Origin: a virus
Taxonomy: Duplodnaviria > Heunggongvirae > Uroviricota > Caudoviricetes
DNA: 13,994 bases
Reading direction: 5' to 3' (one strand)
Virus record (IMG/VR): IMGVR_UViG_2585427783_000004
Numbering within the stretch: the stretch's first letter is position 1; every line of letters begins with the position of its first letter. A model generated the notes under the pieces. It saw only the letters and a list, made by a program, of their open reading frames with translations, was not told the origin of the DNA and did no database searches. Position numbers and translations under genes: made by a program. This document shows, piece by piece, positions 2,503 through 13,994 of the stretch.

Positions 2503-3348
2503 GACAGAGTTATAATTTTTGCCAAAATTGGTAATGTCAGAATTTAATCCCTTAATTAAGTCTGCTGACGGCTTACCTTTTTGCCCCAGCTCCATTAGCT
2601 TCAATCCCATCTCATCTGAGTGAATTTGTGCTCGCTGAGCCCTGTCTAGTTGAGCGTTCTGGATATTTGCCCATCCTCTCGCGTTCTCCATGTCAGCCTG
2701 ACGCATACTTTCATCCAGTCGCCCTTGCTCAAGTCGACGACCTTCCATTTGATCTTTGATATCGAAATACTTCTCATGACCGAGAGAAAACAGCGCCAGA
2801 TTACCTGCGAAATGCTGGAAGCCCTGCGGGTCATTAACCTGCATTTCAGCAATAGTTTCTGGAGGGATACCTAAACGACGCATCTCCTGCTCATTATCCA
2901 TCATGAACCTGCCAAATGCGCCCTGACCAAGCGATGAGGCTACCTGTGCTTTGAGCGCCAGATTGCCATAATCATCCCTTTGAGCATCATCGACATAACT
3001 CATCCCTTTACGGACTTCCTCAAACTCTTCTGGGAATGCTGTAATAAGATTACGCATCTGCTCCCTGTCACCGGACGCATAAGCATCTGCATAACCTTTC
3101 TGGAATGCCGCTTTACGTTCCTGCTGTTGCTGCTGCTTATAAATGTCAGCAACTCCAGCCAGACCACGAAGACCTGTCAGAGCAACGTTATTTGCACCTG
3201 AGCGAGCCAGTTCATTGTTTTCGCGGATCAGACCAAGCGTTGCGTTAATGTCGCTTGCCTTTGGCGCATTCTCATTTTGCGCACCGATGCCAGCCAGAAA
3301 ACCACCAGAATTAATACCCTGTTGCCACGTAGCCATAAATTTACCCAC
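2503..3348 (-). pseudogene. Q/E/R-rich, predicted alpha-helical protein of unknown function; 3' end interrupted by the IS66 insertion
   Basis: Open frame from 3348 (alternative ATG at 3334, MATWQQ...) runs without a stop into the IS. The last codons and stop (V-S-V-N-TGA, 2502->2488) are encoded by the IS terminal repeat itself, so the native C-terminus is missing from the window. Poly-Q tract (QQQQQ) and coiled-coil-like composition. Confidence 0.55.
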
Positions 3349-3514
3349 GTCCAGTTAAAGTGTAAGCCAGCGCCTTATCCATTAATCCCCGAGCAATTTC
3401 GTGGATCGTTGGCGCAACTCCTACCTCTGATTTTTTACGCTGCTCCTCCTGAATTTTCTTTATCGCTTCCATTTGCTTCTCACTTATCAATACTGGCTTT
3501 ACTGAAATAGCCAT
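3341..3514 (-). CDS. Small protein (57 aa), possible DNA-binding regulator; first gene of an operon with the downstream helical protein
   Basis: ATG at 3514 preceded by AAGGGGGG about 5 nt upstream; 8-bp overlap with the next ORF (3348). The longer ORF-track version (start 3643) runs through a terminator hairpin, so the internal start is preferred. Confidence 0.45.
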   Translation of the reverse strand: MAISVKPVLISEKQMEAIKKIQEEQRKKSEVGVAPTIHEIARGLMDKALAYTLTGRG

Positions 3515-3548
3515 AACGCCCCCCTTAGAACTGTATAAAACAACAGTC

Positions 3549-3577
3549 ATTATAGTTTCATAAAACGCAACATTCAT
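3549..3577 (-). promoter_or_regulatory. Candidate sigma70-type promoter for the 57-aa/286-aa operon
   Basis: Perfect TATAAT on the minus strand (plus coordinates 3554->3549) about 35 nt upstream of the ATG at 3514; the -35 is weak (ATGAAT at 17-bp spacing), so it may be activator-dependent. Confidence 0.3.
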
Positions 3578-3610
3578 CATTGTGATTGCAAAATATGAAA
3601 CAAATAGCAC

Positions 3611-3642
3611 AAAAAAATGCCACCGTTCAGTAGCTGGTGGCA
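3611..3642 (-). terminator. Rho-independent terminator for minus-strand transcription
   Basis: On the minus strand: stem UGCCACC / GGUGGCA (7 bp, 3642-3636 and 3624-3618) with an 11-nt loop, immediately followed by a run of 7 U (3617->3611). Confidence 0.5.
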
Positions 3643-4008
3643 TCGTTCTGTATGTCAGGTTTTGACAGTTTTTTTATGGACTCTAAAAACTATATTTATG
3701 GAGTCGCATTACTCTTCACGGCAGGCGCTTTCCAGTTCTGCCCTTGCTTCTGGCTCCATTGGTAATTTGATTCGCGATCAGCTATGCGGATGGTTTGCTG
3801 AACAGGCATAACAACATCTCAGAGGCTATTTTTTGAACTACGAAAATTTCGTAGTGCTCACCTTCAAAAACGTCACGCCCTTGTACACTGGATTTTACAA
3901 AAGTCTCGTAAAACTCTTTGCTGTTCTGGGCTATGTGCCAAACCGCAGCGAATACCTCCGTCTGCCAGATGAGCAAAACATACCTTATAAAGAAAATCGC
4001 TGTTTTTG

Positions 4009-4112
4009 CTGTACCACCTGTACCACCATGTCACAAACCCTTGTGTGGCGCGGCCTGCAGGTGGTACAGGTGGGTAAAAATGACCTCTCCCCACCTGTAC
4101 AGACCTGTACCA
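4009..4112. repeat. Iteron array B: direct and inverted copies of GGTGGTACAGGT / tandem 9-mers TGTACCACC; candidate crr/ori-like site
   Basis: Tandem CTGTACCACC-TGTACCACC at 4009-4027, GGTGGTACAGGTGGGTAAAAATGACC at 4060-4085, ACCTGTACAGACCTGTACC at 4094-4112. Same core motif as array A, 1.1 kb away. Confidence 0.5.
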
Positions 4113-4117
4113 TTTAT

Positions 4118-4855
4118 TTAATTTTTACCCATAGCAGCACATAATCCCTTTTTTGAAATATTGAAAAATGCGTTCATTCTTCCCGCTGGCTTAACCTTGT
4201 AGCCGCTTGCCACCATCGCCGCAATAAATGCTCCGTTGGGGATATAGTGCGGGTGATCACTGTGCTGGTGGTTTATCTGGTTATATCGCTCCACTTCATG
4301 CTTCAACGTGTCAGATGTGGGGTTATCCTGCGGGAAGCTCTCAATCTGGGCATTACTCATCCCGTTGTCTCTGATCCATCTCAGGCAGCTTTTCGCCGAT
4401 ACGATAAATGACGGGTTATCAAGCGGGTTTTCCCAGTCCGCATTCCGGTTGTGGAGCGCCAGTCCGTCAAGGTTAAATTGTGGGTATTCAGCGGTAATTA
4501 CTGTCACTGCGTGGCGGATTTCAGTCTCGTCACAACATGGCTCATCTCCCACACCAGCAGGGTAATAATCTGAACCACCGGGACTGATACAGCGTTTACC
4601 ACTGAAAGGCCATTGCTTCGCCATTTCGGGTGTTGAGTGATTACCGTCGCTCCGTTCGCGCTGTGCCTCTGTCCACTGGCTGGCATATTCAGTAAATGAA
4701 ACTCTTTGCCCCTGGCGCATCCAGTGCGCAATCATAATTAAAGTGCGTTCCAGACTTTGGATGTCGCCAGCATTCCCGCACTGTGTAGCGAAACTTTTTA
4801 ATTCTTCGCGCTCCGTTCTGGTCATTCCCTGCAGTATGCAATAGTTATTGTTCAT
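4118..4855 (-). CDS. Hypothetical protein, 245 aa (His-rich segment QINHQHSDHPHY); function unknown
   Basis: ATG at 4855 preceded by AGAGGT 4 nt upstream; 11-bp overlap with the upstream 76-aa gene; no stop for 245 codons. I do not recognise the family. Confidence 0.7.
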   Translation of the reverse strand: MNNNYCILQGMTRTEREELKSFATQCGNAGDIQSLERTLIMIAHWMRQGQRVSFTEYASQWTEAQRERSDGNHSTPEMAKQWPFSGKRCISPGGSDYYPAGVGDEPCCDETEIRHAVTVITAEYPQFNLDGLALHNRNADWENPLDNPSFIVSAKSCLRWIRDNGMSNAQIESFPQDNPTSDTLKHEVERYNQINHQHSDHPHYIPNGAFIAAMVASGYKVKPAGRMNAFFNISKKGLCAAMGKN

Positions 4856-5075
4856 GTTTTACCTCTCTGATTTCTGCTGCCATATCTGTTGGCTCTATAC
4901 AGCCGTCCCGACTTGCCACGCAGGGAATAATGATTTCAACGGTATCGCCGTCAATACACATTTCAACATTCGCCCATGCCGCAATGGGTAGCCAGTCTGA
5001 ACGCCCCTCAAACCGTAGCTGCCAGCCAGAGGAAGAAGCTAACTGGCGCACTTTGTAAAATGGTGTGCTCATCAT
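4845..5075 (-). CDS. Hypothetical small protein, 76 aa; first gene of a two-gene operon
   Basis: ATG-ATG at 5075/5072 preceded by GAGGG about 8 nt upstream; overlaps the following 245-aa gene by 11 bp. Confidence 0.6.
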   Translation of the reverse strand: MMSTPFYKVRQLASSSGWQLRFEGRSDWLPIAAWANVEMCIDGDTVEIIIPCVASRDGCIEPTDMAAEIREVKHEQ

Positions 5076-5118
5076 TGGTTGTTCCCTCTCAGCCAGCCAG
5101 AAGAAATGCGTTTGTTAA

Positions 5119-5222
5119 TGGTATAGGTGGTACAGGTCTGGTATAGGTAAGATATTGACCTGTACCACTATAACGCATTGTTTTTAATGCTGAATTAGCA
5201 AAGTGGTATAGGTGGTACAGGT
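5119..5222. repeat. Iteron array A immediately downstream of the primase gene: two direct 18-bp copies GGTATAGGTGGTACAGGT plus an inverted partial copy; candidate origin of replication
   Basis: GGTATAGGTGGTACAGGT at 5120-5137 and 5205-5222; GGTATAGGT again at 5140-5148; inverted ACCTGTACCACTATA at 5158-5172. The array begins 30 bp after the primase stop. Confidence 0.5.
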
Positions 5223-5251
5223 AAAAACGATCTTCTTGTAAAAAGACTATA

Positions 5252-7603
5252 TTAAAAAACATCATAACCCCCCATACCGATCAGACGGGCAAACGCAGCC
5301 TGTAGAACTCCGACCTCTGGTAGTTCGTAGAACACGCCATTCCCTCGGTCTGGTCTTCCATGCTTCACCAGCCCCATTTGTGCAAGTGATTTACCCAGTA
5401 GTGATCTGGCAGCTGGTTCTTTAAGCTTTTCCCCACGCTCAAGCGACCACGCTACAAATCGACTAACCATATCCTTTGCAAACAAACGGACTTCGCCATT
5501 AAACGGAGGTTCATTGATTAGCTCGCCATAAAGAAACAATTCAACGCCAGACAGCCCCAGCAAGATTTCTTCACGTAAGGCATCGGTCTGTGGCGCTCGT
5601 TGAGGGTCAAAACCTGAGAGATCCACCCCTTTAAGATGCCAAAGCAACTTTGCGGCACCGCCATCATTAAGCCAACTGTACAGCCGATCAAAATACTCCC
5701 GGCTCTGTGCTTTTTCAGGAGATGGCTCAAGCACGAGATAGCGGCGCTCTCTTATCCCTGCCTGTAATACCTGTGTGCTGTTACTGGCAAATATCAACCG
5801 GGCAAAATTCGGCATTGGTTCAGCATCAATTCCCTTGCGCTCAAGGTTAAACGTCGGTTCGCTAATAATCGCTTTAAGTCTGTCAGCTTCAGACGGCTTG
5901 TGGATCGTCACTTCGTCAGCAAATACCAGTAGCTTGTTAGCAAGTATTGAATTGAAGCGCCCTGAAATATGTCCCGCCCCGTTAATGTGGGCGGCGTACT
6001 GCCCCAGTATTTGCAGCAGCGGTTTAACCGTTGTGCCTTTCCCTGTGCCCGGGACAGATTTCATCACGATTGCCACGGACGGTTTTTCATCAGGCTTTTG
6101 GATAATGTGCGCCATCCACTGGATAAGATATTGGTATGCCTCTTCATTACCGGCACAGACAACCTGCAACAGGTGATTAAGGTATACCGTGCAATCTCCT
6201 TCAATTGGTTCCAGTGCCAGCCCCTCATACAGATTAAAAACATCGTCAGGGCATTTGTCTGGTACTGGATAAAATCCTACGCCTCCTGGCTTGTAGTTCT
6301 TCCCACTCCATGACAGCCACGCCGATCCCGCCAGCTTTCTGGCGACTCTCGGTTTATGATGAAAATAATGCTGAAATTGTGATAAATCCTCGAAAACGTG
6401 CGATACACCGCCGGTTTGAGAAGGCTTTAGCGACACCCCCTTGTGTTTCCCGCCGATGGTGACATGCGTAAACGTCCGGTTGATTTCTTCGAGGACAGCA
6501 ATTTCATCATCGCTTAACACCTCGCCAGAACTGATCTCATTCAGCGCCCCGACTGACTGTTTGTGATTTTTCACCTGCGCCCCTTTCCCCCGTGGCTGGT
6601 ACATCGAATCTTTAAATGCTGCTGTGGCTGCCGCCAGCCCGTGTTGTTGGTGATAGTCGTTCCAGTCGGCTTTATAGTCAGTCGGTGGCAGAGACACCCA
6701 GCCAGCTACGGAAATAGCGGCCCTCTCTGCGGCATCTTTCCCCGTGTTGATCCCTCCACTTTCGGAGTTTCCTTGCTGGTGATCGTTATCTGCGGCAATG
6801 ATGATTTGTGCCTGTGGATATGTTCTGCGCATGACTTCCGCTACTGGCAACAGGTTGCCAGCGTCGATTGCTGCCACTGTCATTGCGTCAGGGCGAATTA
6901 AATGGCACGACAGGGCGGTAGCCACCCCCTCAGCAATTATGATGCTGTGAGGTCGTTTCTGTGCGTTTATGGCGTGATATGCCCCTCGCTTTGCTGAACC
7001 TGTCAGGAGTCTTTTTTCACCATGTGAGGTAATAGTCTGTGCTGCTGTGACTGCGCCGGATTTATCCACCAGCGCCAGCAACAGAGATCCATCGGGCAAC
7101 ACAGGGAATGTAAAATCACCTACCCCTTTCGCAACCAGATAATCAGATTTGCCGTTTACAGCCTTTCTGCGCATGTCATCAAACTGACGGGAAAACGTAT
7201 CCCGTCTTTGTTGTTCGTCCTTCTCTGCCCTTTTCAGGCGCTCCTGTTCGCGTCGCTGGCGCTCGGTTTCCAGTTGTTCCCGTTTCTGGCTGGTGGCTTC
7301 TGGTGTTTCCGTTGTCCGGTAATCAATACCCAGAACATCAGCGGCAAGAAGCGCCGCCTCTGTTGTGTCGCAGTTATTTACGCGTTTAATTAAATCCAGC
7401 CCATCACCAGCGCCGCACTGATTACAGATGAAGCTACCGCGCCCGTTGTCATCGAACCGGAATCGATCTTTGCCCCCACATGCAGGGCAGGGAGCATGAC
7501 GGCGCGGAGAGTCAGGGACATTTATGTTCAGGCAGTCCAGCACATGAGGCCAGTTGTTTTCAGACGCACTGATAACCTGACGGATAAGATCAATGTTTCG
7601 CAT
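5252..7603 (-). CDS. P4 alpha-like bifunctional primase/helicase (zinc-binding primase N-terminus, TOPRIM-like middle, P-loop NTPase C-terminus), 783 aa
   Basis: ATG at 7603. Zinc-ribbon motif CPACGGKDRFRFDD...CNQCG near the N-terminus, Walker A-like VPGTGKGTT, overall size close to P4 alpha (about 777 aa). Recognised from family signatures. Confidence 0.9.
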   Translation of the reverse strand: MRNIDLIRQVISASENNWPHVLDCLNINVPDSPRRHAPCPACGGKDRFRFDDNGRGSFICNQCGAGDGLDLIKRVNNCDTTEAALLAADVLGIDYRTTETPEATSQKREQLETERQRREQERLKRAEKDEQQRRDTFSRQFDDMRRKAVNGKSDYLVAKGVGDFTFPVLPDGSLLLALVDKSGAVTAAQTITSHGEKRLLTGSAKRGAYHAINAQKRPHSIIIAEGVATALSCHLIRPDAMTVAAIDAGNLLPVAEVMRRTYPQAQIIIAADNDHQQGNSESGGINTGKDAAERAAISVAGWVSLPPTDYKADWNDYHQQHGLAAATAAFKDSMYQPRGKGAQVKNHKQSVGALNEISSGEVLSDDEIAVLEEINRTFTHVTIGGKHKGVSLKPSQTGGVSHVFEDLSQFQHYFHHKPRVARKLAGSAWLSWSGKNYKPGGVGFYPVPDKCPDDVFNLYEGLALEPIEGDCTVYLNHLLQVVCAGNEEAYQYLIQWMAHIIQKPDEKPSVAIVMKSVPGTGKGTTVKPLLQILGQYAAHINGAGHISGRFNSILANKLLVFADEVTIHKPSEADRLKAIISEPTFNLERKGIDAEPMPNFARLIFASNSTQVLQAGIRERRYLVLEPSPEKAQSREYFDRLYSWLNDGGAAKLLWHLKGVDLSGFDPQRAPQTDALREEILLGLSGVELFLYGELINEPPFNGEVRLFAKDMVSRFVAWSLERGEKLKEPAARSLLGKSLAQMGLVKHGRPDRGNGVFYELPEVGVLQAAFARLIGMGGYDVF

Positions 7604-7615
7604 TCTGGCCCCCGT

Positions 7616-8218
7616 TTAGTGCGTCACTGGTGCTTCTGGGATGCCGTTTTCGTTTAGTTCGGCAATAAAGCTGTTGTGAAGATCGGCAAGCACTTCTCGC
7701 CCAAACGAAGTGAGTGTTCCCTGTTCGACATCGAACATGTTGCTGTAAAAAATGATGGCATTCTTTGTTCCGACATCAACACCATATTTCTCGATCATTG
7801 CGCCCTCAATGTTGTTTGCCATAGCGAGGCGCTCTGCTACTGGATACAGCGGCATGGCGACGATGCCATTGGAATAAACAGAAACCACGGAATGATTGCC
7901 ACTGTCATCAATAATGCTGACGGTGCCGTTTTCCTCTCTCATTTCCAGCATGAATACTGTTGCGATCAGCCATCTCCACATAATGACGTTATGCTGTGAT
8001 GTGTAATCGAAATATCCCTGGTTGCCGCCATCGGCAATAGCGAGATGTATTGACATACCTTCATCTGGTTTATCGTCATAATCCCCGGCATCCAGACGAT
8101 TTACGGCATCAATATATGAGACGGCCTCAACGCGTTCTGTCATGCCATCGTTGCTGCGGTACATGATGTTTACGCCGCCAGGCGTTGCTTCTGCATGGAA
8201 AGTTAAGAAATTATTCAT
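7616..8218 (-). CDS. Hypothetical protein, 200 aa, immediately upstream of and co-oriented with the primase
   Basis: ATG at 8218 (MNNFLTFHAE...) with GAGG 7 nt upstream; 8-bp overlap with the preceding small gene. The ORF-track start at 8323 is an upstream extension that would overlap the previous gene by more than 100 bp. Confidence 0.6.
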   Translation of the reverse strand: MNNFLTFHAEATPGGVNIMYRSNDGMTERVEAVSYIDAVNRLDAGDYDDKPDEGMSIHLAIADGGNQGYFDYTSQHNVIMWRWLIATVFMLEMREENGTVSIIDDSGNHSVVSVYSNGIVAMPLYPVAERLAMANNIEGAMIEKYGVDVGTKNAIIFYSNMFDVEQGTLTSFGREVLADLHNSFIAELNENGIPEAPVTH

Positions 8219-8432
8219 GTTTCGCCTCGCCTGAATGATTCTGTAACTCATATTTGCCCAACAATTCGTCCGCTTCCTGAATAGCTTCTGGTACGCCATT
8301 GAGCAGTGACATAACCGCGCCAATCATTAACTTGTCTCTGTTGCTTGGGCTGGCCCCTTCAAGCCAGAACCCTAAAACAGTCTGAACCTGTTCGATGCGA
8401 CATTGCGCTTCAATGAGCTGGATGTTGGTCAT
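8211..8432 (-). CDS. Hypothetical small protein, 73 aa
   Basis: ATG at 8432 with GGAGAG 6 nt upstream; ATGA overlap with the preceding gene stop (8429-8432). Confidence 0.55.
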   Translation of the reverse strand: MTNIQLIEAQCRIEQVQTVLGFWLEGASPSNRDKLMIGAVMSLLNGVPEAIQEADELLGKYELQNHSGEAKHE

Positions 8433-8692
8433 TTCGCACTCTCCACATCGATTAAACTGATATCTATCAGGGAGGTAACTTTTTGTAGCCAGCTATTGAT
8501 TACTGTCGCCTGTTCCCCTCCCACCGAGGGAATAATCTCATTCATCACATGAACCAGACCTGTGCGCGCTCTGGTAAGCCGTTCAGTCGCGCAATCTGCG
8601 GGAGTGAATGTGTCTGGATATGGCTCTTCGCGCCCCAGCAATGATTCAATTTCCAGCTCACACGGATGACGATAAATTAAGTTGATATTCAT
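8429..8692 (-). CDS. Hypothetical small protein, 87 aa
   Basis: ATG at 8692; ATGA overlap with the upstream gene stop; part of the chain of overlapping genes. Confidence 0.55.
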   Translation of the reverse strand: MNINLIYRHPCELEIESLLGREEPYPDTFTPADCATERLTRARTGLVHVMNEIIPSVGGEQATVINSWLQKVTSLIDISLIDVESAK

Positions 8693-8883
8693 TTTTCACC
8701 ACCAAGAATTACCAGCTCTGCACGGGCATCGTTAACCAAAGATGAGCACGCTTTAATCGCATCCACGACATCAGCAGCGTCCATTTCTTCAGCCGAAAGA
8801 CTGACAGCAACCAGGACAGCCGCTGCTTGCTCGATTAATTGAAGTGCGGACGTAAGGCGAGGGGTATTAATTGAGTTATTCAT
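8689..8883 (-). CDS. Hypothetical small protein, 64 aa
   Basis: ATG at 8883 preceded by GGGGG about 6 nt upstream; 8-bp overlap with the upstream gene. Confidence 0.5.
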   Translation of the reverse strand: MNNSINTPRLTSALQLIEQAAAVLVAVSLSAEEMDAADVVDAIKACSSLVNDARAELVILGGEK

Positions 8884-9094
8884 TGGTTGCCCCCGTTTTT
8901 ACTGGCATTTCGCCACCTTCCAGCAGGAAATGAACGTCACGAACGGCGAGATCCAATATCGCGAGTAACGCCTTCAGTCTTTCGTCTCGTGAGGGAGAGT
9001 TGCTCACCAGAATGTCGTTAATCACTTCTGTCAGTGTGATGATCTGGCTTGTGCGTTCGAGGGGATCCATATGCACATCGTAGGTTTTAATCAT
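8876..9094 (-). CDS. Hypothetical small protein, 72 aa
   Basis: ATG at 9094 preceded by GGAGGTG at ideal spacing; the start overlaps the stop of the upstream 64-aa gene (CATGATTAA). Confidence 0.55.
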   Translation of the reverse strand: MIKTYDVHMDPLERTSQIITLTEVINDILVSNSPSRDERLKALLAILDLAVRDVHFLLEGGEMPVKTGATNE

Positions 9095-9281
9095 GTGCCA
9101 CCTCCATGCGGATACGACCAGCAAAAAAGCAGACGTGATCGCGCACCAGAGAACGGCGAGCATCGCGTTCAGACTCGGCAGCAATATGATGAATTTTGGC
9201 GGTAATTGTCGGGCAATCGCGGCGAACTGCGGCGATAATCCAGATAAATTGCGTTTTTTGGGTAGGGGTAGTAGCCAGCAT
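9087..9281 (-). CDS. Hypothetical small protein, 64 aa; first gene of the early operon that ends with the primase
   Basis: ATG at 9281 preceded by a perfect AAGGAGG 7 nt upstream. All seven Arg codons are CGC/CGT and Leu is CTG, whereas the overlapping frame of the 355-aa ORF is full of CTA/TTA/ATA/AGG/CGA here. Confidence 0.55.
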   Translation of the reverse strand: MLATTPTQKTQFIWIIAAVRRDCPTITAKIHHIAAESERDARRSLVRDHVCFFAGRIRMEVAHD

Positions 9282-9477
9282 GTGGCAGCCTCCTTCAGAT
9301 AGCAGGTTACGCTACCACCGGAAACGCCAATTTCGCTGGTGGTAGCCCAGACAGGGTTGGCGTAACCGGCTCTGAAGGATACCGGCGCTTCCGAAGAAGC
9401 CCCCGCCTGAGCCACCATTGATTGACAAAGGCGCTGGATTATACACCAACGCCCAAAAAATGGGTGAGTCAGACCTA
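9282..9477 (-). promoter_or_regulatory. Promoter plus structured 5' leader of the early operon
   Basis: Minus-strand TATAAT at 9443->9438 (no good -35). Downstream leader has a UUCG-tetraloop hairpin (GCUUC-UUCG-GAAGC, 9400->9387) and a 9-bp stem hairpin (GCUACCACC ... GGUGGUAGC, 9346->9311) before the SD at about 9290. Confidence 0.35.
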
Positions 9478-9513
9478 CGACATAAAAAAAGACGCTTGGC
9501 GCGTCATATGTCG
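9478..9513 (-). terminator. Candidate rho-independent terminator at the end of the alpA-side transcription unit
   Basis: Minus strand: stem GACGC / GCGUC (5 bp, 5-nt loop) followed by U7 (9490->9484), nested inside a larger inverted repeat CGACAT ... ATGTCG (9478-9483 / 9508-9513). Confidence 0.4.
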
Positions 9514-9943
9514 CCTTCAGAATTTTTAGGACGCCAATCCCGGCACCCGTTTTATGAGGTGCCTTATAACCATAAACCGTGTTGCCGCATAACGGCAAGC
9601 TCTTTTTTATGGACTCCGAAAACTCACTATTGGAAGAACCAGAAGCACAGTACATCGCGCTCATTTCGTTAACGTCACGCGCGTGGACGAAGGTTTTTGT
9701 GGAGTCACTACACGAGCAGAGAAAGCCATCTACGACCAGAAATTCTCTGGCATAGCCGCTGACCTTCTCAACGCTAACACCATCGACCGTAATTTCTGAC
9801 ATAGTTAAGGCATCCGCTCCTACCACCAGCAAATGATAAACTTTGCTTGTATCTGCTGTATTAATGTCTGACTTTGCTGTCATATTGCTGGATTTTGGCG
9901 ACATACCAGCCAGTGAAAATATCTTCTTCTGGGCGGTTAGCAT
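9514..9943 (-). other. Open frame with a plausible start (GGAGG + ATG at 9943) but no in-frame stop before the terminator and promoter; possible decayed gene or chance open frame
   Basis: SD GGAGG 7 nt upstream of the ATG at 9943 and protein-like composition for about 120 codons, but the frame runs through a terminator, a promoter, leader hairpins and a better-supported gene in another frame without any stop. Confidence 0.25.
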
Positions 9944-10119
9944 TTGTTAACCTCCGCGAACTCCTTCATGAAACGTGCCAGCGGTTGTACGCATGGCGAT
10001 TGATACCCGTCGCGATAAAACGTCACTCGGTTGTGAGACACGCTTTCGACAGTAACGAGTGCTCCGTGGGCATCTTTGTAGCGTTTTTGAGGTTGTGGTG
10101 TTCCTGTCGGCTTAAACAT
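9937..10119 (-). CDS. Hypothetical small protein, 60 aa
   Basis: ATG at 10119 (MFKPTGT...) preceded by GGAGG 6 nt upstream; the start overlaps the stop of the antirepressor-like gene (ATGTTTAA). The ORF-track start at 10206 is a non-coupled upstream extension. Confidence 0.45.
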   Translation of the reverse strand: MFKPTGTPQPQKRYKDAHGALVTVESVSHNRVTFYRDGYQSPCVQPLARFMKEFAEVNKC

Positions 10120-10945
10120 GGACCGCCTCCAGACGCTTGGCGAGCCAGCGTTGCGACAGGCGGGGGAGTTCTCCTTTGCGCTGCTCATATTCCATGCCCA
10201 TATCAATTAACGTGATATTGGTGCTTTCGAGATATGAGAGGTGCTCAAGCTGTTCTGCGTTCATATGGTCGCGAGGTTCGCCAGAATAGCCATTTATCCG
10301 CGCCCACTGCTTAGCAGTTAGCCCACCAAGAACGATACGAGAAATCATATTGCTCTCGTTTGTGTAGTGGTGTTGCTGCGTCGTTTTCCCCATCTCGGCA
10401 CGGGCCATATTCAGCGCATCGCACATTGGCTTGAAGTTGTTTGCGGCACTGATACGGGCTTTTAGCTGGCGACGATAGCGGGCGGCGATTTCAGGCACGC
10501 TACGCTGTAATTCTTTCTCGCACTGGATGAAATAACGGCGGATAGCGCGACCCTGATCATTGCGTTCGATCATTGCCAGTTCTTTCGCCATTCCGACACT
10601 TAACAGATAGTCTTTGCCGGGTCTGCCAGACTGCTTAATCTTGCTGTAAGCCGCGTCATTCGGGCTTTTCCCCAAATTTGGGGAAATTGTTTTATGGACT
10701 GAGTAATCGTGCCCAATGGTGAAGTCATATTCAGAGATGCGATCAGTGATCCATGTAGAGAAGTCTTTTCCCACGCCCAACGCTTTGTGTAACGCTTTTG
10801 CGCTAACAATATTGGTTTCACGCCCGCCTATATGACCAGAAATAACCGGGACAATTGCGGCAAATTCATTACCGTTAATTGTGCCCAGAGAGGCGTTCAG
10901 ATGAGGGGCGGCCTCAGAAATTAATCTGCTTTTTTCGATGTTCAT
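10112..10945 (-). CDS. Phage antirepressor-like protein with N-terminal AntA/AntB-type domain, 277 aa
   Basis: ATG at 10945 with GGAGA 6 nt upstream. The N-terminal region (SAKALHKALGVGKDFSTWI...GRPGKDYLLSVGMAKELAMIE...GRAIRRYFIQCE) matches the conserved AntA-domain pattern as I recall it. Confidence 0.65.
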   Translation of the reverse strand: MNIEKSRLISEAAPHLNASLGTINGNEFAAIVPVISGHIGGRETNIVSAKALHKALGVGKDFSTWITDRISEYDFTIGHDYSVHKTISPNLGKSPNDAAYSKIKQSGRPGKDYLLSVGMAKELAMIERNDQGRAIRRYFIQCEKELQRSVPEIAARYRRQLKARISAANNFKPMCDALNMARAEMGKTTQQHHYTNESNMISRIVLGGLTAKQWARINGYSGEPRDHMNAEQLEHLSYLESTNITLIDMGMEYEQRKGELPRLSQRWLAKRLEAVHV

Positions 10946-10957
10946 TTTTAGTCTCCG

Positions 10958-11389
10958 TTAGGCGGCGTTAAACGCGTCCGGGTAGAGTTTCAGAATGTCG
11001 GCAATTTCCTGCTGAGAAAGTCCGTTGTGATCATTTATGTTCGCAAGATGGTTAACATGAGTGATCACTTTCAGAACATCACCACGGCAGGAGAAACGGT
11101 AGCGAAGGTGTGTTCCGATACCATCAGGATTCTTTTCGTCGATACGCTCCAGAGTGATTCCAAGCTGGCGTTCTAACTCTGTTGCATAGTTACGACCAGA
11201 AGACAGACGGCAGTAGCGAAGAATGTCATTTTCTGTCCATCCCTCTATACCAGTACGCAGCATATAGACTCGGGCACGATGCTTTTTCGGTGTGCGCTTT
11301 GGTGCTTGAAGGGATTTTGTAAGGGGCGTAATATCAGATACGCGAATATCTGAATTAGCCGCCTGTAATGGGCGGTTTTTCTTTTCCAT
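10958..11389 (-). CDS. Hypothetical protein, 143 aa, basic N-terminus; function unknown
   Basis: ATG at 11389 overlaps the alpA stop (ATGA); no stop for 143 codons; conventional codon usage. Confidence 0.6.
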   Translation of the reverse strand: MEKKNRPLQAANSDIRVSDITPLTKSLQAPKRTPKKHRARVYMLRTGIEGWTENDILRYCRLSSGRNYATELERQLGITLERIDEKNPDGIGTHLRYRFSCRGDVLKVITHVNHLANINDHNGLSQQEIADILKLYPDAFNAA

Positions 11390-11607
11390 CAGGCCACCTT
11401 CCCGCGGCGTTCTGCCAGCCAGTTATTAATTTCCACCGCATCAAACGCAGTCACGTTATCTGTTAGCTTCACTGGGCGTGGAAGAGTGCCATTTTTAACC
11501 CATCTATCAATAGTAGGCAGTGAAACACCTAGCAATTCCGGCATGCGAAAGCGACGGATGTATCCAGTTGTTGGGATAGCTGATGATGCTGGCTTGTGTA
11601 CTGTCAT
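11389..11607 (-). CDS. alpA: AlpA-family (excisionase-like, MerR-type HTH) transcriptional regulator, 72 aa
   Basis: ATG at 11607. Small protein with the motif MPELLGVSLPTIDRWVKNGTLPRPVKL...AFDAVEINNWL typical of AlpA/Xis-type regulators found next to P4-type integrases. Confidence 0.75.
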   Translation of the reverse strand: MTVHKPASSAIPTTGYIRRFRMPELLGVSLPTIDRWVKNGTLPRPVKLTDNVTAFDAVEINNWLAERRGKVA

Positions 11608-12078
11608 GTCTCTAGTAACCTCTCTGATAGCTCATGAAGTTACTTAAAGTTTAGTGGTTGCCCATACAGTATTTCTATTAAGACTAGAATCTATTGAAAG
11701 AAATTATAAATCTATTGAAAAAATACCGATCCACTGAAAGATTGCAAATGCAGGTGGGATAATTATTTTCTTTATTTTCAATTAGTTACCAGTTTAAAAA
11801 ATCATTGTTTTATCAAAGAGTTATATCTTTCATCGTCATTCATCATGTTTTTACATTTCTTTTTATCTTTTATTATTCAATTGGTTGAGTCGGTTTATAA
11901 TGGCTCATGATGGCTTAAAATGGCTAATGATAGCTGGCGTATCTTTTAGAGATGGGGTGATTACAGATGAACTAAGCCGAACAGATATAGCAATGGCTAG
12001 GCATAGAATTATCTATGCTGGTGGAGATGGGTAAACAGGTAATGCCCCGCCATTGCTTTGGAGGGGCGTGAAAAGTGA
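11608..12078 (-). promoter_or_regulatory. AT-rich intergenic control region upstream of alpA, carrying repeat motifs
   Basis: 470 bp with no ORF of 60 aa or more, strongly AT-rich with A/T tracts. Contains direct repeats AATCTATTGAAA (11688-11699 and 11709-11720), a 7-bp-arm palindrome GCATAGA-atta-TCTATGC (12001-12018) and the phased array at 11901-11938. Confidence 0.4.
11901..11938. repeat. Helically phased tandem 10-bp repeats TGGCTnAnnA (3 good copies plus 1 degenerate)
   Basis: tggctcatga / tggcttaaaa / tggctaatga / tagctggcgt read directly from the sequence; 10-bp periodicity places copies on one DNA face. Confidence 0.45.
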
Positions 12079-12729
12079 TTAGTCGAGATCGTGGACAGCT
12101 AATAAAGCCCGTGAGATTTTTTCTAGGAATGTGGCTTTTGCTATTCCTTTATGGGATATCCCTTCATCCTTGATTAAGGTTTCTATGTCACGGTATATAG
12201 CTGTGCGATTAGGTTTCCCATTTTGGATGTAGGAAGATGAGCCTGATTTTTTTATCAGCAGATGTACTATCAACCCCATCATTTTCATTGTCCCGTTTTC
12301 CTCATCCTGCTTTCTATGCTGCCCACGTCCGCTGCGGTTGGTTTCTTTGATGTAGTTTACTAACTGGAGTCCTCCAAGGTTTCGGGCTTTTTCTTCCCAG
12401 CCCTTGGTGCCACGCAAATCATCAATCGCTTCTGATATTTTCTGAACAATTATTTCTGGTGTATTTGTGTCAATAAATGGGTAAGAAGCTAAGAAAATAT
12501 CAAGGGCATGGCAAGGCTCATCTTTACTAGTTTTTTCACCTCTGTACACCTTGATAGCTCTGGCAAGATGAGTTCTGACAAAATCGACATATTCGAAATT
12601 TTCCTCAGGCACATCGCTAATGCGCATAGATGGGTTTAGGCCAGCCAAGGCCACAGCCATTTCATGAGGGGTAATCGATACAGATGAACAAAGCCGTTCG
12701 ATTGGCGATTTTCTCAAGATGTTGTTCAC
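12079..12729 (-). CDS. Hypothetical protein, 216 aa, translationally coupled to the integrase; AT-rich cargo gene of unknown function
   Basis: GTG start at 12729 overlapping the integrase stop (GTGA) with a strong GGAGG 5 nt upstream; TAA at 12079-12081. Visibly lower GC than neighbouring genes. No family recognised. Confidence 0.6.
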   Translation of the reverse strand: MNNILRKSPIERLCSSVSITPHEMAVALAGLNPSMRISDVPEENFEYVDFVRTHLARAIKVYRGEKTSKDEPCHALDIFLASYPFIDTNTPEIIVQKISEAIDDLRGTKGWEEKARNLGGLQLVNYIKETNRSGRGQHRKQDEENGTMKMMGLIVHLLIKKSGSSSYIQNGKPNRTAIYRDIETLIKDEGISHKGIAKATFLEKISRALLAVHDLD

Positions 12730-13994
12730 ATTTGCCTCCGGGCTTTATCGAATGGCGTTACGTTGTAGTCTTTCCCGCTTTCCAGTGCCACCAGCAGATC
12801 TGCCCACTGTGCCAGTGCTGCTTTACGCTCATCAAAATACTGATGACGGTTATAAATCCCCTCTACGCCCTTAATGCGATGATTGAGGCATCGTTCCGCC
12901 ACGACAGGATCAACACCCAATGCTGCTAAATGAGTACGTGCGGTGCGTCGGAAGTCGTGAATCGTGAAATTAGGCACATCCGGCATTTCGGCGCGAACCT
13001 TAGCCAGTGCTACGGGTAAAGTGCTTTCCTGAATATGTGGGATCATTCTGTTTTGCATCTTCCTGGCCGGAAGCACCCATGCGCTATTACATGAAAAGGT
13101 GTGTAGCTCTCTCAACCATTCAACGGCTGGGGAAGGTAGAGGTATATCAATAGGGTCTCCGTTTTTGCTGCGTTCTTCCGGCAAATGCCATACCGCACCA
13201 TCTAAATCAAACTCTTCCCATCGTGCGGCGCATAACTCCATCTTACGAACGCATAGTGCCAGCAATAGCTTAAATGTCAGTTCGTTCTGGCGGCTGAATC
13301 CTTTTGCGGTGCGCATAGCCTCGAATAGCCTGATAAGCTCATCGCGAGTTAGCCAACGGTCGCGGGAAACCTCTTTACCACCAGCATCAGATACTTCAAA
13401 CGCTGAACAAGGGTTTATCTCCAGAGCGTGGCGTTTTATCCCATAGTCAAAGATACGGCGTGTCCAGCGTAATACATCTGTTGCTATCGTTGGTGCTCCT
13501 CGGTCAACGATACCTTTTAACATGTCGTCAATGTGACGTGGCTTAACGTCCTCTACCTTCATATGCCCAATGCAGGGGTTAATATCCTTATCAATTCTCC
13601 GGCGAAGGATATCGGGATGTTTCCATCTCGGAAGTATCTGTCGCTCGAAGTATTCGGCGGCCAGATCTGAAACGCGCATGGCGTTTTTCTCAGCCTCCAT
13701 TTTTGCCAGTGCTTCAGCTTTTCGTTCCTGTTTTTCTGCTGCTACGTCATAGCCAAGAGCAACTCTGGCTGACAGCTCTTTTGCTGTTTCTCTGGCTTTT
13801 GATAGTGACAGTTCGGAGTAAGAGCCGATAACCATAGCCCGCTGTTTTCCTGCGAGCTTATATCGGAATCGCCAGAACGGGACTGTGTAGTTTTTGGGGT
13901 AGCAAATATAAAGGCCGTTGCCGTCTGCCTTGCCATCAAATCTGTCTCCCGCCTTTATCCATGCGCGGATCTGCATATCTGTGAGTTTTGGCAT
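12726..13994 (-). CDS. int: Tyrosine recombinase, P4-type phage integrase, 422 aa
   Basis: ATG at 13994 (window edge). N-terminal arm-binding region with RFRYKLAGKQRAMVIGSY...LSKARETAKEL, and C-terminal catalytic region with HDFRRTARTHLAALGV and a conserved Tyr (YNRHQY). Confidence 0.9.
   Translation of the reverse strand: MPKLTDMQIRAWIKAGDRFDGKADGNGLYICYPKNYTVPFWRFRYKLAGKQRAMVIGSYSELSLSKARETAKELSARVALGYDVAAEKQERKAEALAKMEAEKNAMRVSDLAAEYFERQILPRWKHPDILRRRIDKDINPCIGHMKVEDVKPRHIDDMLKGIVDRGAPTIATDVLRWTRRIFDYGIKRHALEINPCSAFEVSDAGGKEVSRDRWLTRDELIRLFEAMRTAKGFSRQNELTFKLLLALCVRKMELCAARWEEFDLDGAVWHLPEERSKNGDPIDIPLPSPAVEWLRELHTFSCNSAWVLPARKMQNRMIPHIQESTLPVALAKVRAEMPDVPNFTIHDFRRTARTHLAALGVDPVVAERCLNHRIKGVEGIYNRHQYFDERKAALAQWADLLVALESGKDYNVTPFDKARRQM

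Follow-up and report, generated by a model that had tools for sequence, protein, structure and literature searches.

An integrase at one end, an insertion sequence (IS) at the other and, between them, replication genes reminiscent of phage P4 in the gene order of a phage-inducible chromosomal island (PICI): which kind of mobile element does such a locus represent? The question arises from the virus record IMGVR_UViG_2585427783_000004 (Caudoviricetes), a stretch of 13,994 nucleotides that we refer to as the window, the part under study being positions 2503-13994. The initial annotation, made from the sequence alone, described a satellite that combines P4-type replication genes with PICI-type regulation, possibly of an intermediate or undescribed lineage. 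Our analysis supports the view of the locus as a satellite-type island in which the replication gene is related to that of P4 and the succession of int, alpA and primase is PICI-like. All credible genes among the open reading frames (ORFs) of 2503-13994 lie on the minus strand, which agrees with the co-directional arrangement from int through alpA to the primase noticed earlier. We consider it probable that the window holds most of an EcCIMP1-like Gram-negative PICI that is helped by P22-like phages, resides at the 3' end of yicC and has been cut by an IS66-family element.

EcCIMP1 is a 19,963-bp PICI at tRNA-Thr (proA/yagU) of Escherichia coli MP1 (Pick, Stadel & Raivio 2025, ISME J 19:wrae258; PMC11773190). 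Its gene set comprises integrase, AlpA, antirepressor, Ash, primase, 'DNA transfer' genes and PerC. Terminase and capsid-morphogenesis genes are lacking, and Pick et al. class it as a 'type C' PICI in the SatelliteFinder scheme (PMC11773190). Circularization of EcCIMP1 requires the presence and induction of the P22-like phage Kapi1, which also transduces it; deletion of either int or alpA abolishes both excision and transfer (PMC11773190). The transfer frequency is low, EcCIMP1 contributes to superinfection immunity, and EcCIMP1-like elements vary in int (Pick et al. 2025, PMC11773190).

Comparison of the window with EcCIMP1 revealed two highly similar stretches: positions 7618-11399, from the Bro zone to the gene of a 200-residue protein, share 94.6% DNA identity, and positions 3366-3917, covering a 57-residue gene and 400 bp upstream of it, share 93.3%. 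The gene order matches as well, in the succession int, alpA, a 143-residue gene, AntA/B, DUF4222, Ash/C4 RNA/Icd, small ORFs, primase, a ribbon-helix-helix (RHH) gene, ejection genes and perC, and several proteins of the two islands have identical accessions. The core zone (7616-11400) is present at a coverage of at least 80% in 481 of 5,426 complete E. coli genomes. Given this identity to a described element, together with the published P4/PICI gene pool and four-zone plan, the proposal of an intermediate or undescribed lineage does not hold. The island enlarges the EcCIMP1-like branch of Gram-negative PICIs by a new member that has its own attachment (att) site, its own integrase/AlpA pair and its own replicon module, and it is neither a canonical P4 nor a canonical Rpp/TerS PICI.

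Compared to EcCIMP1, the island in the window has an additional 216-residue gene and lacks the second alpA gene (alpA_1). A swap has replaced the C-terminal part of the primase, the two flanked genes and the iterons: this island has DUF5906 and GGTAYAGGT where EcCIMP1 has DUF927 and GTTGGTTCA. Moreover, homologues of gp14 and gp7 are absent from the island at yicC, whose gp20 and gp16 alleles differ from those of EcCIMP1 and are nearer to Kapi1 than EcCIMP1's own.

Gram-negative PICIs follow a four-zone plan, which consists of an integration zone (int, AlpA), a Bro zone, a zone for replication and a late zone that is dynamic and carries captured helper late genes (Tommasini, Mageeney & Williams 2023, PMC10111431). 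Immunity RNAs belong to the Bro zone, and that study found them by means of the Rfam models C4 and isrK; it assigned P4 to the same gene-sharing group (PMC10111431). We applied the criteria for Gram-negative PICIs after Fillol-Salom 2018 and Tommasini 2023, and those for EcCIMP1-like elements after Pick et al. 2025; the island fits the four-zone plan zone by zone. As in Gram-negative PICIs of the EcCICFT073 type, int, alpA and pri of the island follow one another in a single direction, the origin lies downstream of pri, a Bro/immunity-RNA zone and a late zone of captured phage late genes are present, and the size falls within 10-20 kb. In contrast to them, the island lacks Rpp/TerS/Ppi redirection and a capsid gene, the same gap as reported for EcCIMP1, and its presumed helper is a P22-like podovirus rather than a lambdoid siphovirus. 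Searches with Pfam and PHROGs gave no match to PICI packaging genes of the terS, rpp, ppi or capsid type in any ORF of the window or the intact island, nor to terminase, capsid, portal or lysis genes in either; the only virion genes of the intact island are of the gp20 and gp16 types.

The left part of the window does not belong to the island. Positions 1-2502 are occupied by an IS66-family element on the minus strand, recognized from its ORFs and their translations, with tnpC (1-1614), tnpB (1645-1995) and tnpA (1992-2417) on the same strand and its other end beyond the window. The terminal inverted repeat ends ...GGTCAGTTTACGCTTAC at 2486-2502, and the IS stops precisely at 2502; the island begins at 2503, the start of every complete-genome match. 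In a megablast search of the window against the 5,426 complete E. coli genomes, 46 hold precisely 2503-13994 at 99-100% identity, none of them with the IS at that point. Because the matches start at 2503 without an IS there, the 2502/2503 junction is an insertion point inside a longer island, as the initial annotation had suspected in describing a distal end interrupted by IS66.

The content of the whole island was taken from strains L1_E925, PA45B and FORC_031. Comparison of intact copies with the empty site of K-12 gave a length of 17,977 bp for the yicC-site element, a value that describes these copies and not the one in the window. Across the 46 genomes the island always lies between yicC and dinD. 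In K-12 the flanks join at the 12-bp TTATTCGATGTT, which represents the last three codons and the stop of yicC on the complementary strand, and imperfect copies of this core, TTATTCAATGTT and TTATTCGATATT, are found at the two island ends (L002 5704-5715 and 23681-23692). Inside the element, clusters of (A)TGTACA(C) repeats lie at both ends (L002 5783-5806 and 23527-23573), and the int-side repeats together with the att core fall 35-190 bp past the window end. The TGTACA repeats are likely arm-type integrase sites, which fits the Arm-DNA-bind_3 domain of the integrase. A 24-bp ATTATGTACACC..TATGTACACG was considered as the att repeat and rejected, as the K-12 comparison makes these repeats internal and arm-type, with a core of 12 bp. 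An att core is indeed present past 13994, where an att repeat and a tRNA had been anticipated, whereas the tRNA is absent: none lies within the window, none was found beyond 13994 in intact copies, and the att site is the 3' end of yicC.

Past the IS point, intact copies carry the rest of the gp20-like gene and a 705-residue gp16-type 'DNA transfer protein' (phrog_770, 9e-51), then a small membrane protein, an ImmA/IrrE (CapP-like) protease with its partner, and a PerC/ANR-family regulator. Neither sid, delta and psu nor PICI packaging genes, which might have placed the element in a known family, turned up beyond this point in the intact relatives. The accessory end (L002 6192-9369), which carries the CapP/ImmA-like metalloprotease, its 125-residue partner, a 131-residue membrane protein and the PerC/ANR regulator, varies between strains. 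The 131-residue membrane protein, which follows the gp16-like gene in a sieA-like position, was evaluated as a SieA-like protein and set aside, having no phage homologue.

Several points weigh against identifying the window island as a P22-helped relative of EcCIMP1. Its att site is at the 3' end of yicC instead of tRNA-Thr, and its integrase and AlpA are 29% and 34% identical to those of EcCIMP1, respectively. No terS, pac or capsid-size gene was found, and for this island we infer from sequence which helper it uses, by what route its DNA is packaged and what part the ejection proteins play. The window, moreover, ends inside the IS, so that the remainder of this copy is beyond view, and the state of close copies suggests that the ejection zone is dispensable or decaying in the 100%-identical clade.

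The last two points bear on an alternative that we regard as possible but doubtful, namely that this copy is an immobile, decaying remnant of an EcCIMP1-like satellite, eroded by insertion sequences. In the window, the IS66 splits the gp20-like gene after codon 282, and the late zone of this copy is therefore damaged. Two other copies, 100% identical, have insertions in the gp16-like gene: an IS1 in L1_E925 (L001 9010-9707), and an IS3 with a group II intron in FORC_031 (L044 1189-4672). Altogether, copies of the enterotoxigenic E. coli (ETEC) clade show three independent IS events in two ejection genes, with IS66 in gp20 and IS1 and IS3 in the gp16-like gene. Three independent events in the same two genes suggest that, in that clade, selection on the late zone is relaxed or negative. 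Against an immobile remnant, the integration, immunity and replication zones remain intact despite these events, with the int, alpA, primase, iteron and immunity-RNA regions 100% conserved, and the PA45B copy (99.2% identical; NZ_CP021288, 4,076,054-4,094,030) is intact throughout, including both the gp20-like and the gp16-like genes. In EcCIMP1, furthermore, excision and transfer were tied to int and alpA, the ejection genes not being among those tested (PMC11773190).

It is very improbable that the island is an integrative element of a non-satellite kind, for instance a mobilizable element or an island serving defence or regulation, that has int, alpA and primase genes in common with satellites but moves independently of phages. 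The absence of recognizable packaging genes, the accessory CapP/ImmA-like protease and PerC/ANR regulator, and the part that EcCIMP1 plays in superinfection immunity are consistent with such an element, but neither a relaxase or oriT nor genes for conjugation were found, the island bears virion ejection genes and P4-type immunity, and its close relative is proven to be helper-dependent.

An argument for a P22-like helper comes from the late zone. Its first gene encodes the 57-residue RHH protein (RHH57; 3341-3514, minus strand), which overlaps or abuts the next gene, a P22 gp20-type ejection gene whose 5' part, codons 1-282 of 447, is retained in the window (2503-3348, minus strand) up to the IS66 cut. 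The full-length gp20-like protein of 447 residues (L002 11491-12834) matches PF16928 Inj_translocase (2.5e-73) and phrog_917 (4e-132), and shares 74.7% identity over its full length with gp20 of Kapi1 and 72.5% identity with that of SEN22. Both it and the gp16-like protein, likewise full-length, have their nearest phage relatives in Lederbergvirus. The gp16-like protein is 41% identical to that of Kapi1, and 62% identical to that of Sf101 over the C-terminal 70%. At the gp20/gp16 junction, 1,267 bp are 89% identical to Kapi1 DNA, and this close match points to recent exchange with Lederbergvirus phages, which are therefore likely helpers. A blastn search of the island against the whole Kapi1 genome gave, besides the ejection genes, a single 60-nt stretch, with no match in terS and no pac candidate.

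P22-like phages (Kapi1, SEN22, Sf101 and E212) possess full-length homologues of gp20 and gp16 in the same order, with overlapping gene ends. In the satellite, by contrast, these genes sit behind the RHH gene and a promoter of their own, and no coat, portal or terminase genes accompany them. The sister islands at tRNA-Thr have either gp20 and gp16 or the full set gp14-gp7-gp20-gp16, and relatives in Serratia and Leclercia also carry P22-type ejection modules. A comparison of the ejection genes (L007 13481-17517 against L009 29086-32582, and L002 9389-12834) showed that EcCIMP1 and its proven helper Kapi1 share 26% identity in gp20, 24% in gp16, 83% in gp14 and 57% in gp7. As gp20 and gp16 of EcCIMP1 are unlike those of Kapi1, a satellite and its helper need not share the type of ejection protein.

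The same genes might instead be debris of a P22-like prophage remnant that is fused with, or lies beside, a P4/PICI-type island, which we consider very improbable. The gp20 and gp16 genes are ordinary P22-like virion genes, and the long stretch of near-Kapi1 DNA would fit this origin. Yet the junction of terminator, promoter, RHH gene and ejection genes recurs at two att sites, alongside two types of primase, and is also seen in Serratia and Leclercia; other prophage genes are absent, the att repeats enclose the ejection genes together with perC, and EcCIMP1, which has the same module, excises as one unit.

The region between the replication unit and RHH57 (3515-3651, minus strand) was characterized by a terminator scan and by its sequence. 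A terminator-like hairpin with a T-run at about 3608-3651 closes the replication unit, followed by two dyads of the TTTCA..TGAAA type, a strong TATAAT without a good -35 element, and a Shine-Dalgarno sequence. The terminator, dyads, TATAAT and Shine-Dalgarno are all retained in an alignment of 14 sequences from 11 named genera, and positions 3366-3917 are 93-99% identical in islands with differing flanking modules. These features suggest that the late promoter is probably under separate, activator-dependent control, with the RHH protein as a putative autoregulator. AlpA is unlikely to be the direct late activator, because AlpA varies (34% identity to that of EcCIMP1) and the promoter is 93% conserved. 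Compared with late-promoter and pac regions of phages, the noncoding block upstream of the RHH gene gave only matches of 39-110 nt that were at chance level or unrelated.

In the replication zone, the primase-helicase of 783 residues (5252-7603, minus strand) has the Pfam domains Zn_Ribbon_Prim, Toprim_3 and DUF5906, and matches phrog_2249 (1.3e-92). Its similarity to P4 alpha, proposed by the initial annotation, stands for the N-terminal 335 residues (33% identity, E 9e-41) and fails for the C-terminal half, which shows no BLASTP similarity to P4 alpha and scores 20 bits against TIGR01613, the C-terminal model of P4-family primases, with a cut-off of 108.7. This half comprises a DUF5906-type NTPase and a presumed origin-binding part. 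Comparison of the primase gene with L007 19422-22178 and L010-L033 revealed a mosaic: positions 6582-7603 are 87.5% identical in DNA to the EcCIMP1 primase, whereas 5252-6581 are unrelated to it. Across Enterobacterales loci, one N-terminus is joined to three unrelated C-terminal types, DUF5906, DUF927 and the P4-alpha type.

Two iteron clusters accompany this primase. Cluster A (5119-5225) has six copies of GGTAYAGGT directly downstream of the primase stop, and cluster B (4009-4112), with direct and inverted copies of GGTACAGGT, forms the distal half of the putative origin. There are nine exact copies of GGTAYAGGT in both orientations, all confined to 4016-4111 and 5120-5222, compared to 0.13 expected, and none of 200 shuffles reached nine; the P4-style iteron clusters noticed earlier are thus real. 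Between the clusters lie the genes of a 76-residue protein (4845-5075, minus strand), with no match in Pfam, NCBIfam or PADLOC, and of a 245-residue protein (4118-4855, minus strand), with a weak match to phrog_9576 only (E 7e-4). Homologues of these two genes co-occur with a DUF5906-type C-terminus in two loci only (L010 and L011). The 245-residue ORF and a 100-residue ORF were tested as gp7 analogues and rejected, as were tail-assembly-inhibition (Tai) systems (PMC11364771) for the genes near pri, these being unrelated small proteins. The origin region of EcCIMP1 has another iteron, GTTGGTTCA, in six copies. In this comparison, which covers the two origins of this island and of EcCIMP1, the iteron differs along with the primase C-terminus, as would be expected if the C-terminus and the origin are swapped as one module.

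Upstream of the primase gene, the Bro zone combines an antirepressor-type gene set with an RNA immunity region. A 143-residue protein (10958-11389, minus strand) is encoded between alpA and the gene of an AntA/AntB antirepressor-family protein (10112-10945, minus strand; Pfam AntA 1.2e-21; phrog_5817 'anti-repressor Ant' 5e-39), followed by a DUF4222 protein (9937-10119, minus strand; Pfam 6e-25). The proteins of 9937-11389 are 97-100% identical to their EcCIMP1 counterparts, AntA being 97% identical. Four further genes of unassigned function (7616-8883, minus strand), encoding proteins of 200 (phrog_1515), 73, 87 and 64 residues, are conserved in EcCIMP1, some with the same accessions. Scans of the 216-, 143-, 200-, 76- and 245-residue proteins with PADLOC and NCBIfam gave nothing.

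The RNA immunity region (9318-9562, minus strand), identified with Rfam, lies inside a 355-residue 'Ash family' ORF (8876-9943, minus strand). It is composed of a C4/CI-type RNA (9335-9422; Rfam C4, 79.9 bits, gathering threshold 45), an isrK/seqA-like leader (9485-9562; Rfam isrK, 60.5 bits, gathering threshold 50) and a seqC-like target (9318-9330) complementary to 9357-9369 in the C4-like RNA, all on the minus strand. The leader has its own terminator at 9491-9505, a hairpin followed by U7, and the C4 loop (9354-9363) is complementary to 9531-9540 of the leader. Since the C4 loop is complementary to both the leader and the downstream site, the seqA-seqB-seqC logic of P4 immunity is reproduced. 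The two Rfam models also match P4, at the CI RNA and the upstream leader, and EcCIMP1, in the same order. The PF10554 match of the 'Ash' ORF spans residues 124-232, corresponding to nucleotides 9248-9574; because the Ash domain represents the translated immunity-RNA region, most of the length of this ORF probably encodes no real protein. The ORF is 42% identical to the obsolete 'cI protein' ORF of P4, and is labelled a pseudogene in MP1, ECO-104 and FORC_031. We regard the 'Ash' protein as probably largely spurious, an annotation shadow of the immunity RNAs. Nested in another frame of the ORF is the gene of an Icd-like protein of 64 residues (9087-9281, minus strand; NF033153, 71.6 bits, cut-off 25), which is annotated in FORC_031 and MP1. 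The regulation of the island therewith consists of AlpA plus a P4-type RNA immunity, and the label of PICI-type regulation is correct for AlpA but incomplete, as the P4-type CI/seqA RNA pair is also present.

The likeness to P4 comprises the N-terminal domain of the primase, a CI (C4) RNA and seqA (isrK) leader that both lie upstream of the genes for replication, a homologue of Vis/AlpA, the P4-type integrase fold and, as in crr/ori of P4, two clusters of short iterons, one of them directly after the primase gene. The differences are equally clear: the iteron is another one (TGTTCACC in P4), the helicase/origin-binding half differs, AntA/B and related genes intervene between alpA and the immunity RNA, and the late genes are P22-type. 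The core set of P4-like satellites consists of int, alpA, alpha, epsilon, sid, delta and psu, in addition to cos. Pfam and PHROGs profiles and tblastn with the P4 proteins (E <= 1e-5) gave no match to Sid, Delta, Psu or Epsilon in the complete island, which bears out the reported lack of Sid, Psu and an Ogr/Delta-type activator, and the P4 cos end is absent at up to three mismatches, with the P4 record as positive control. A strict P4-like satellite with a P2-like helper can hardly be what this is, its membership being already refuted: the alpha-homologous N-terminus, CI/seqA RNA pair, Vis/AlpA homologue and two iteron clusters speak for it, but sid, delta, psu, epsilon and the cos end are missing, the primase C-terminus stays below the P4-family cut-off, and the late genes are of P22 type.

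The integration zone occupies the right end of the window. The tyrosine integrase (12726-13994, minus strand) has the Pfam domains Arm-DNA-bind_3, Phage_int_M and Phage_integrase, and its start codon forms the window end. Next to it, the 216-residue protein of unassigned function (12079-12729, minus strand) matches phrog_30524 (3e-34) and nothing in PADLOC, NCBIfam or Pfam; its gene also adjoins a related int in two other loci (L014 and L016) and travels with this integrase type. The AlpA/Vis-family regulator (11389-11607, minus strand; PF05930, 26.4 bits, cut-off 21) is a probable excisionase as well, and shares 32% identity with P4 Vis. Upstream of alpA lies a putative control region of 470 bp (11608-12078, minus strand), recognized by its composition and sequence, which is AT-rich (35% GC). 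Candidate regulator-binding sites in it are two TTTCAATAGATT direct repeats, together with four AGCCAT repeats at intervals of about 11-12 bp.

On the reading of the island as an EcCIMP1-like PICI, we propose the following life cycle. In the resting state, the CI/C4 RNA would pair with the seqA- and seqC-like leader sites, as judged by homology to P4, and the pairing would terminate transcripts before they reach the Icd-like gene or the primase operon. Lytic growth of a P22-like (Lederbergvirus) helper may then induce alpA and lead to excision, as shown for EcCIMP1, the integrase and AlpA presumably excising and integrating the element via the 12-bp core and the TGTACA arm sites. The mosaic primase-helicase would act on the two GGTAYAGGT clusters to replicate the island. 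From the late unit, the RHH regulator and then the gp20- and gp16-type proteins would be produced, the latter being loaded into helper procapsids, and the island DNA would exit in helper particles.

The late zone of the island has counterparts well beyond E. coli. Scanning species-representative genomes with the primase yielded 24 loci, almost all from Enterobacterales, most of which have a large part of the backbone in common; none of the 24 has sid, delta or psu of P4. The RHH family numbers 391 clusters, all of whose named members belong to Enterobacterales. We checked the gene directly after the RHH gene in about 18 sampled contexts, a small sample without a background control, and found a virion DNA-delivery or penetration protein in about 15 of them. 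P22-type ejection proteins follow in Escherichia, Serratia and Leclercia; tape-measure proteins in K. michiganensis, Buttiauxella, Lonsdalea, Pluralibacter and Erwiniaceae; transglycosylase-bearing internal virion or 'lytic tail' proteins in K. pneumoniae (very common), Klebsiella sp., Enterobacter and Cedecea; a baseplate hub in Pantoea and Salmonella; and tail-fibre/baseplate-type proteins (phrog_817) in Apirhabdus (L031). Long myovirus structural clusters take this place in two cases, one from Hafnia and one from a second E. coli lineage, and in one case, Citrobacter youngae, no virion protein was recognized.

The K. pneumoniae satellite (L035-L037) is very common; its RHH protein has entries in about 1,300 indexed blocks of the collection. 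Its genes are ordered int, alpA, Ash, DUF927 primase, single-stranded DNA-binding protein (SSB) and RHH, followed by podovirus-type internal virion proteins of 898 (SLT domain), 575 and 855 residues and a Rap1a-domain protein. One copy of this satellite has an IS66 between the RHH gene and the internal virion genes.

The capture of late genes by Gram-negative PICIs is, in general, already published (PMC10111431). The arrangement found here, with the RHH gene and its conserved promoter heading late zones and delivery proteins usually next, may be new: our literature search gave no description of a bias to envelope-penetration or DNA-conduit proteins behind a conserved RHH gene, and no direct description of satellite-encoded ejection or tape-measure proteins. 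Because the sample is small and without a background control, this bias is a lead only. Tentatively, and with more doubt than confidence, we suggest that the late zone is a dedicated, swappable 'DNA-delivery cassette' of P4-related satellites that re-equips helper virions with the satellite's own conduit proteins. If so, the content of the cassette would follow the helper, with gp20 and gp16, with or without gp14 and gp7, for P22-like phages, and tape-measure proteins, transglycosylase-bearing proteins and hubs otherwise. In P22, altered gp16 and gp20 provide the escape from SieA exclusion, the two need to be a cognate pair, and P22 virions incorporate foreign E-proteins (Leavitt et al. 2024, PMC10883804). 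The escape from SieA via cognate gp16 and gp20 makes a bypass of exclusion a concrete hypothesis for the joint carriage of these genes, by which the satellite could pass superinfection exclusion in helper-carrying recipients. In an alternative role, the satellite proteins could spoil the helper's own particles. If real, such a cassette would differ as a satellite strategy from the resizing of capsids, the redirection of terminase and the formation of capsids.

As filed, the island matters little, adding an att site at the 3' end of yicC, an integrase/AlpA pair and a replicon module to a described and common family. It does provide a clean example of modular exchange, in which the primase N-terminus is kept and the C-terminus and iterons are swapped together, and a lesson for annotation, as the 'Ash family protein' calls here cover P4-type immunity RNAs and hide an Icd-like gene. 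Overall, satellites without packaging genes of their own carry cognate gp20 and gp16, or tape-measure and hub proteins elsewhere, which bears on how they may enter past superinfection exclusion.

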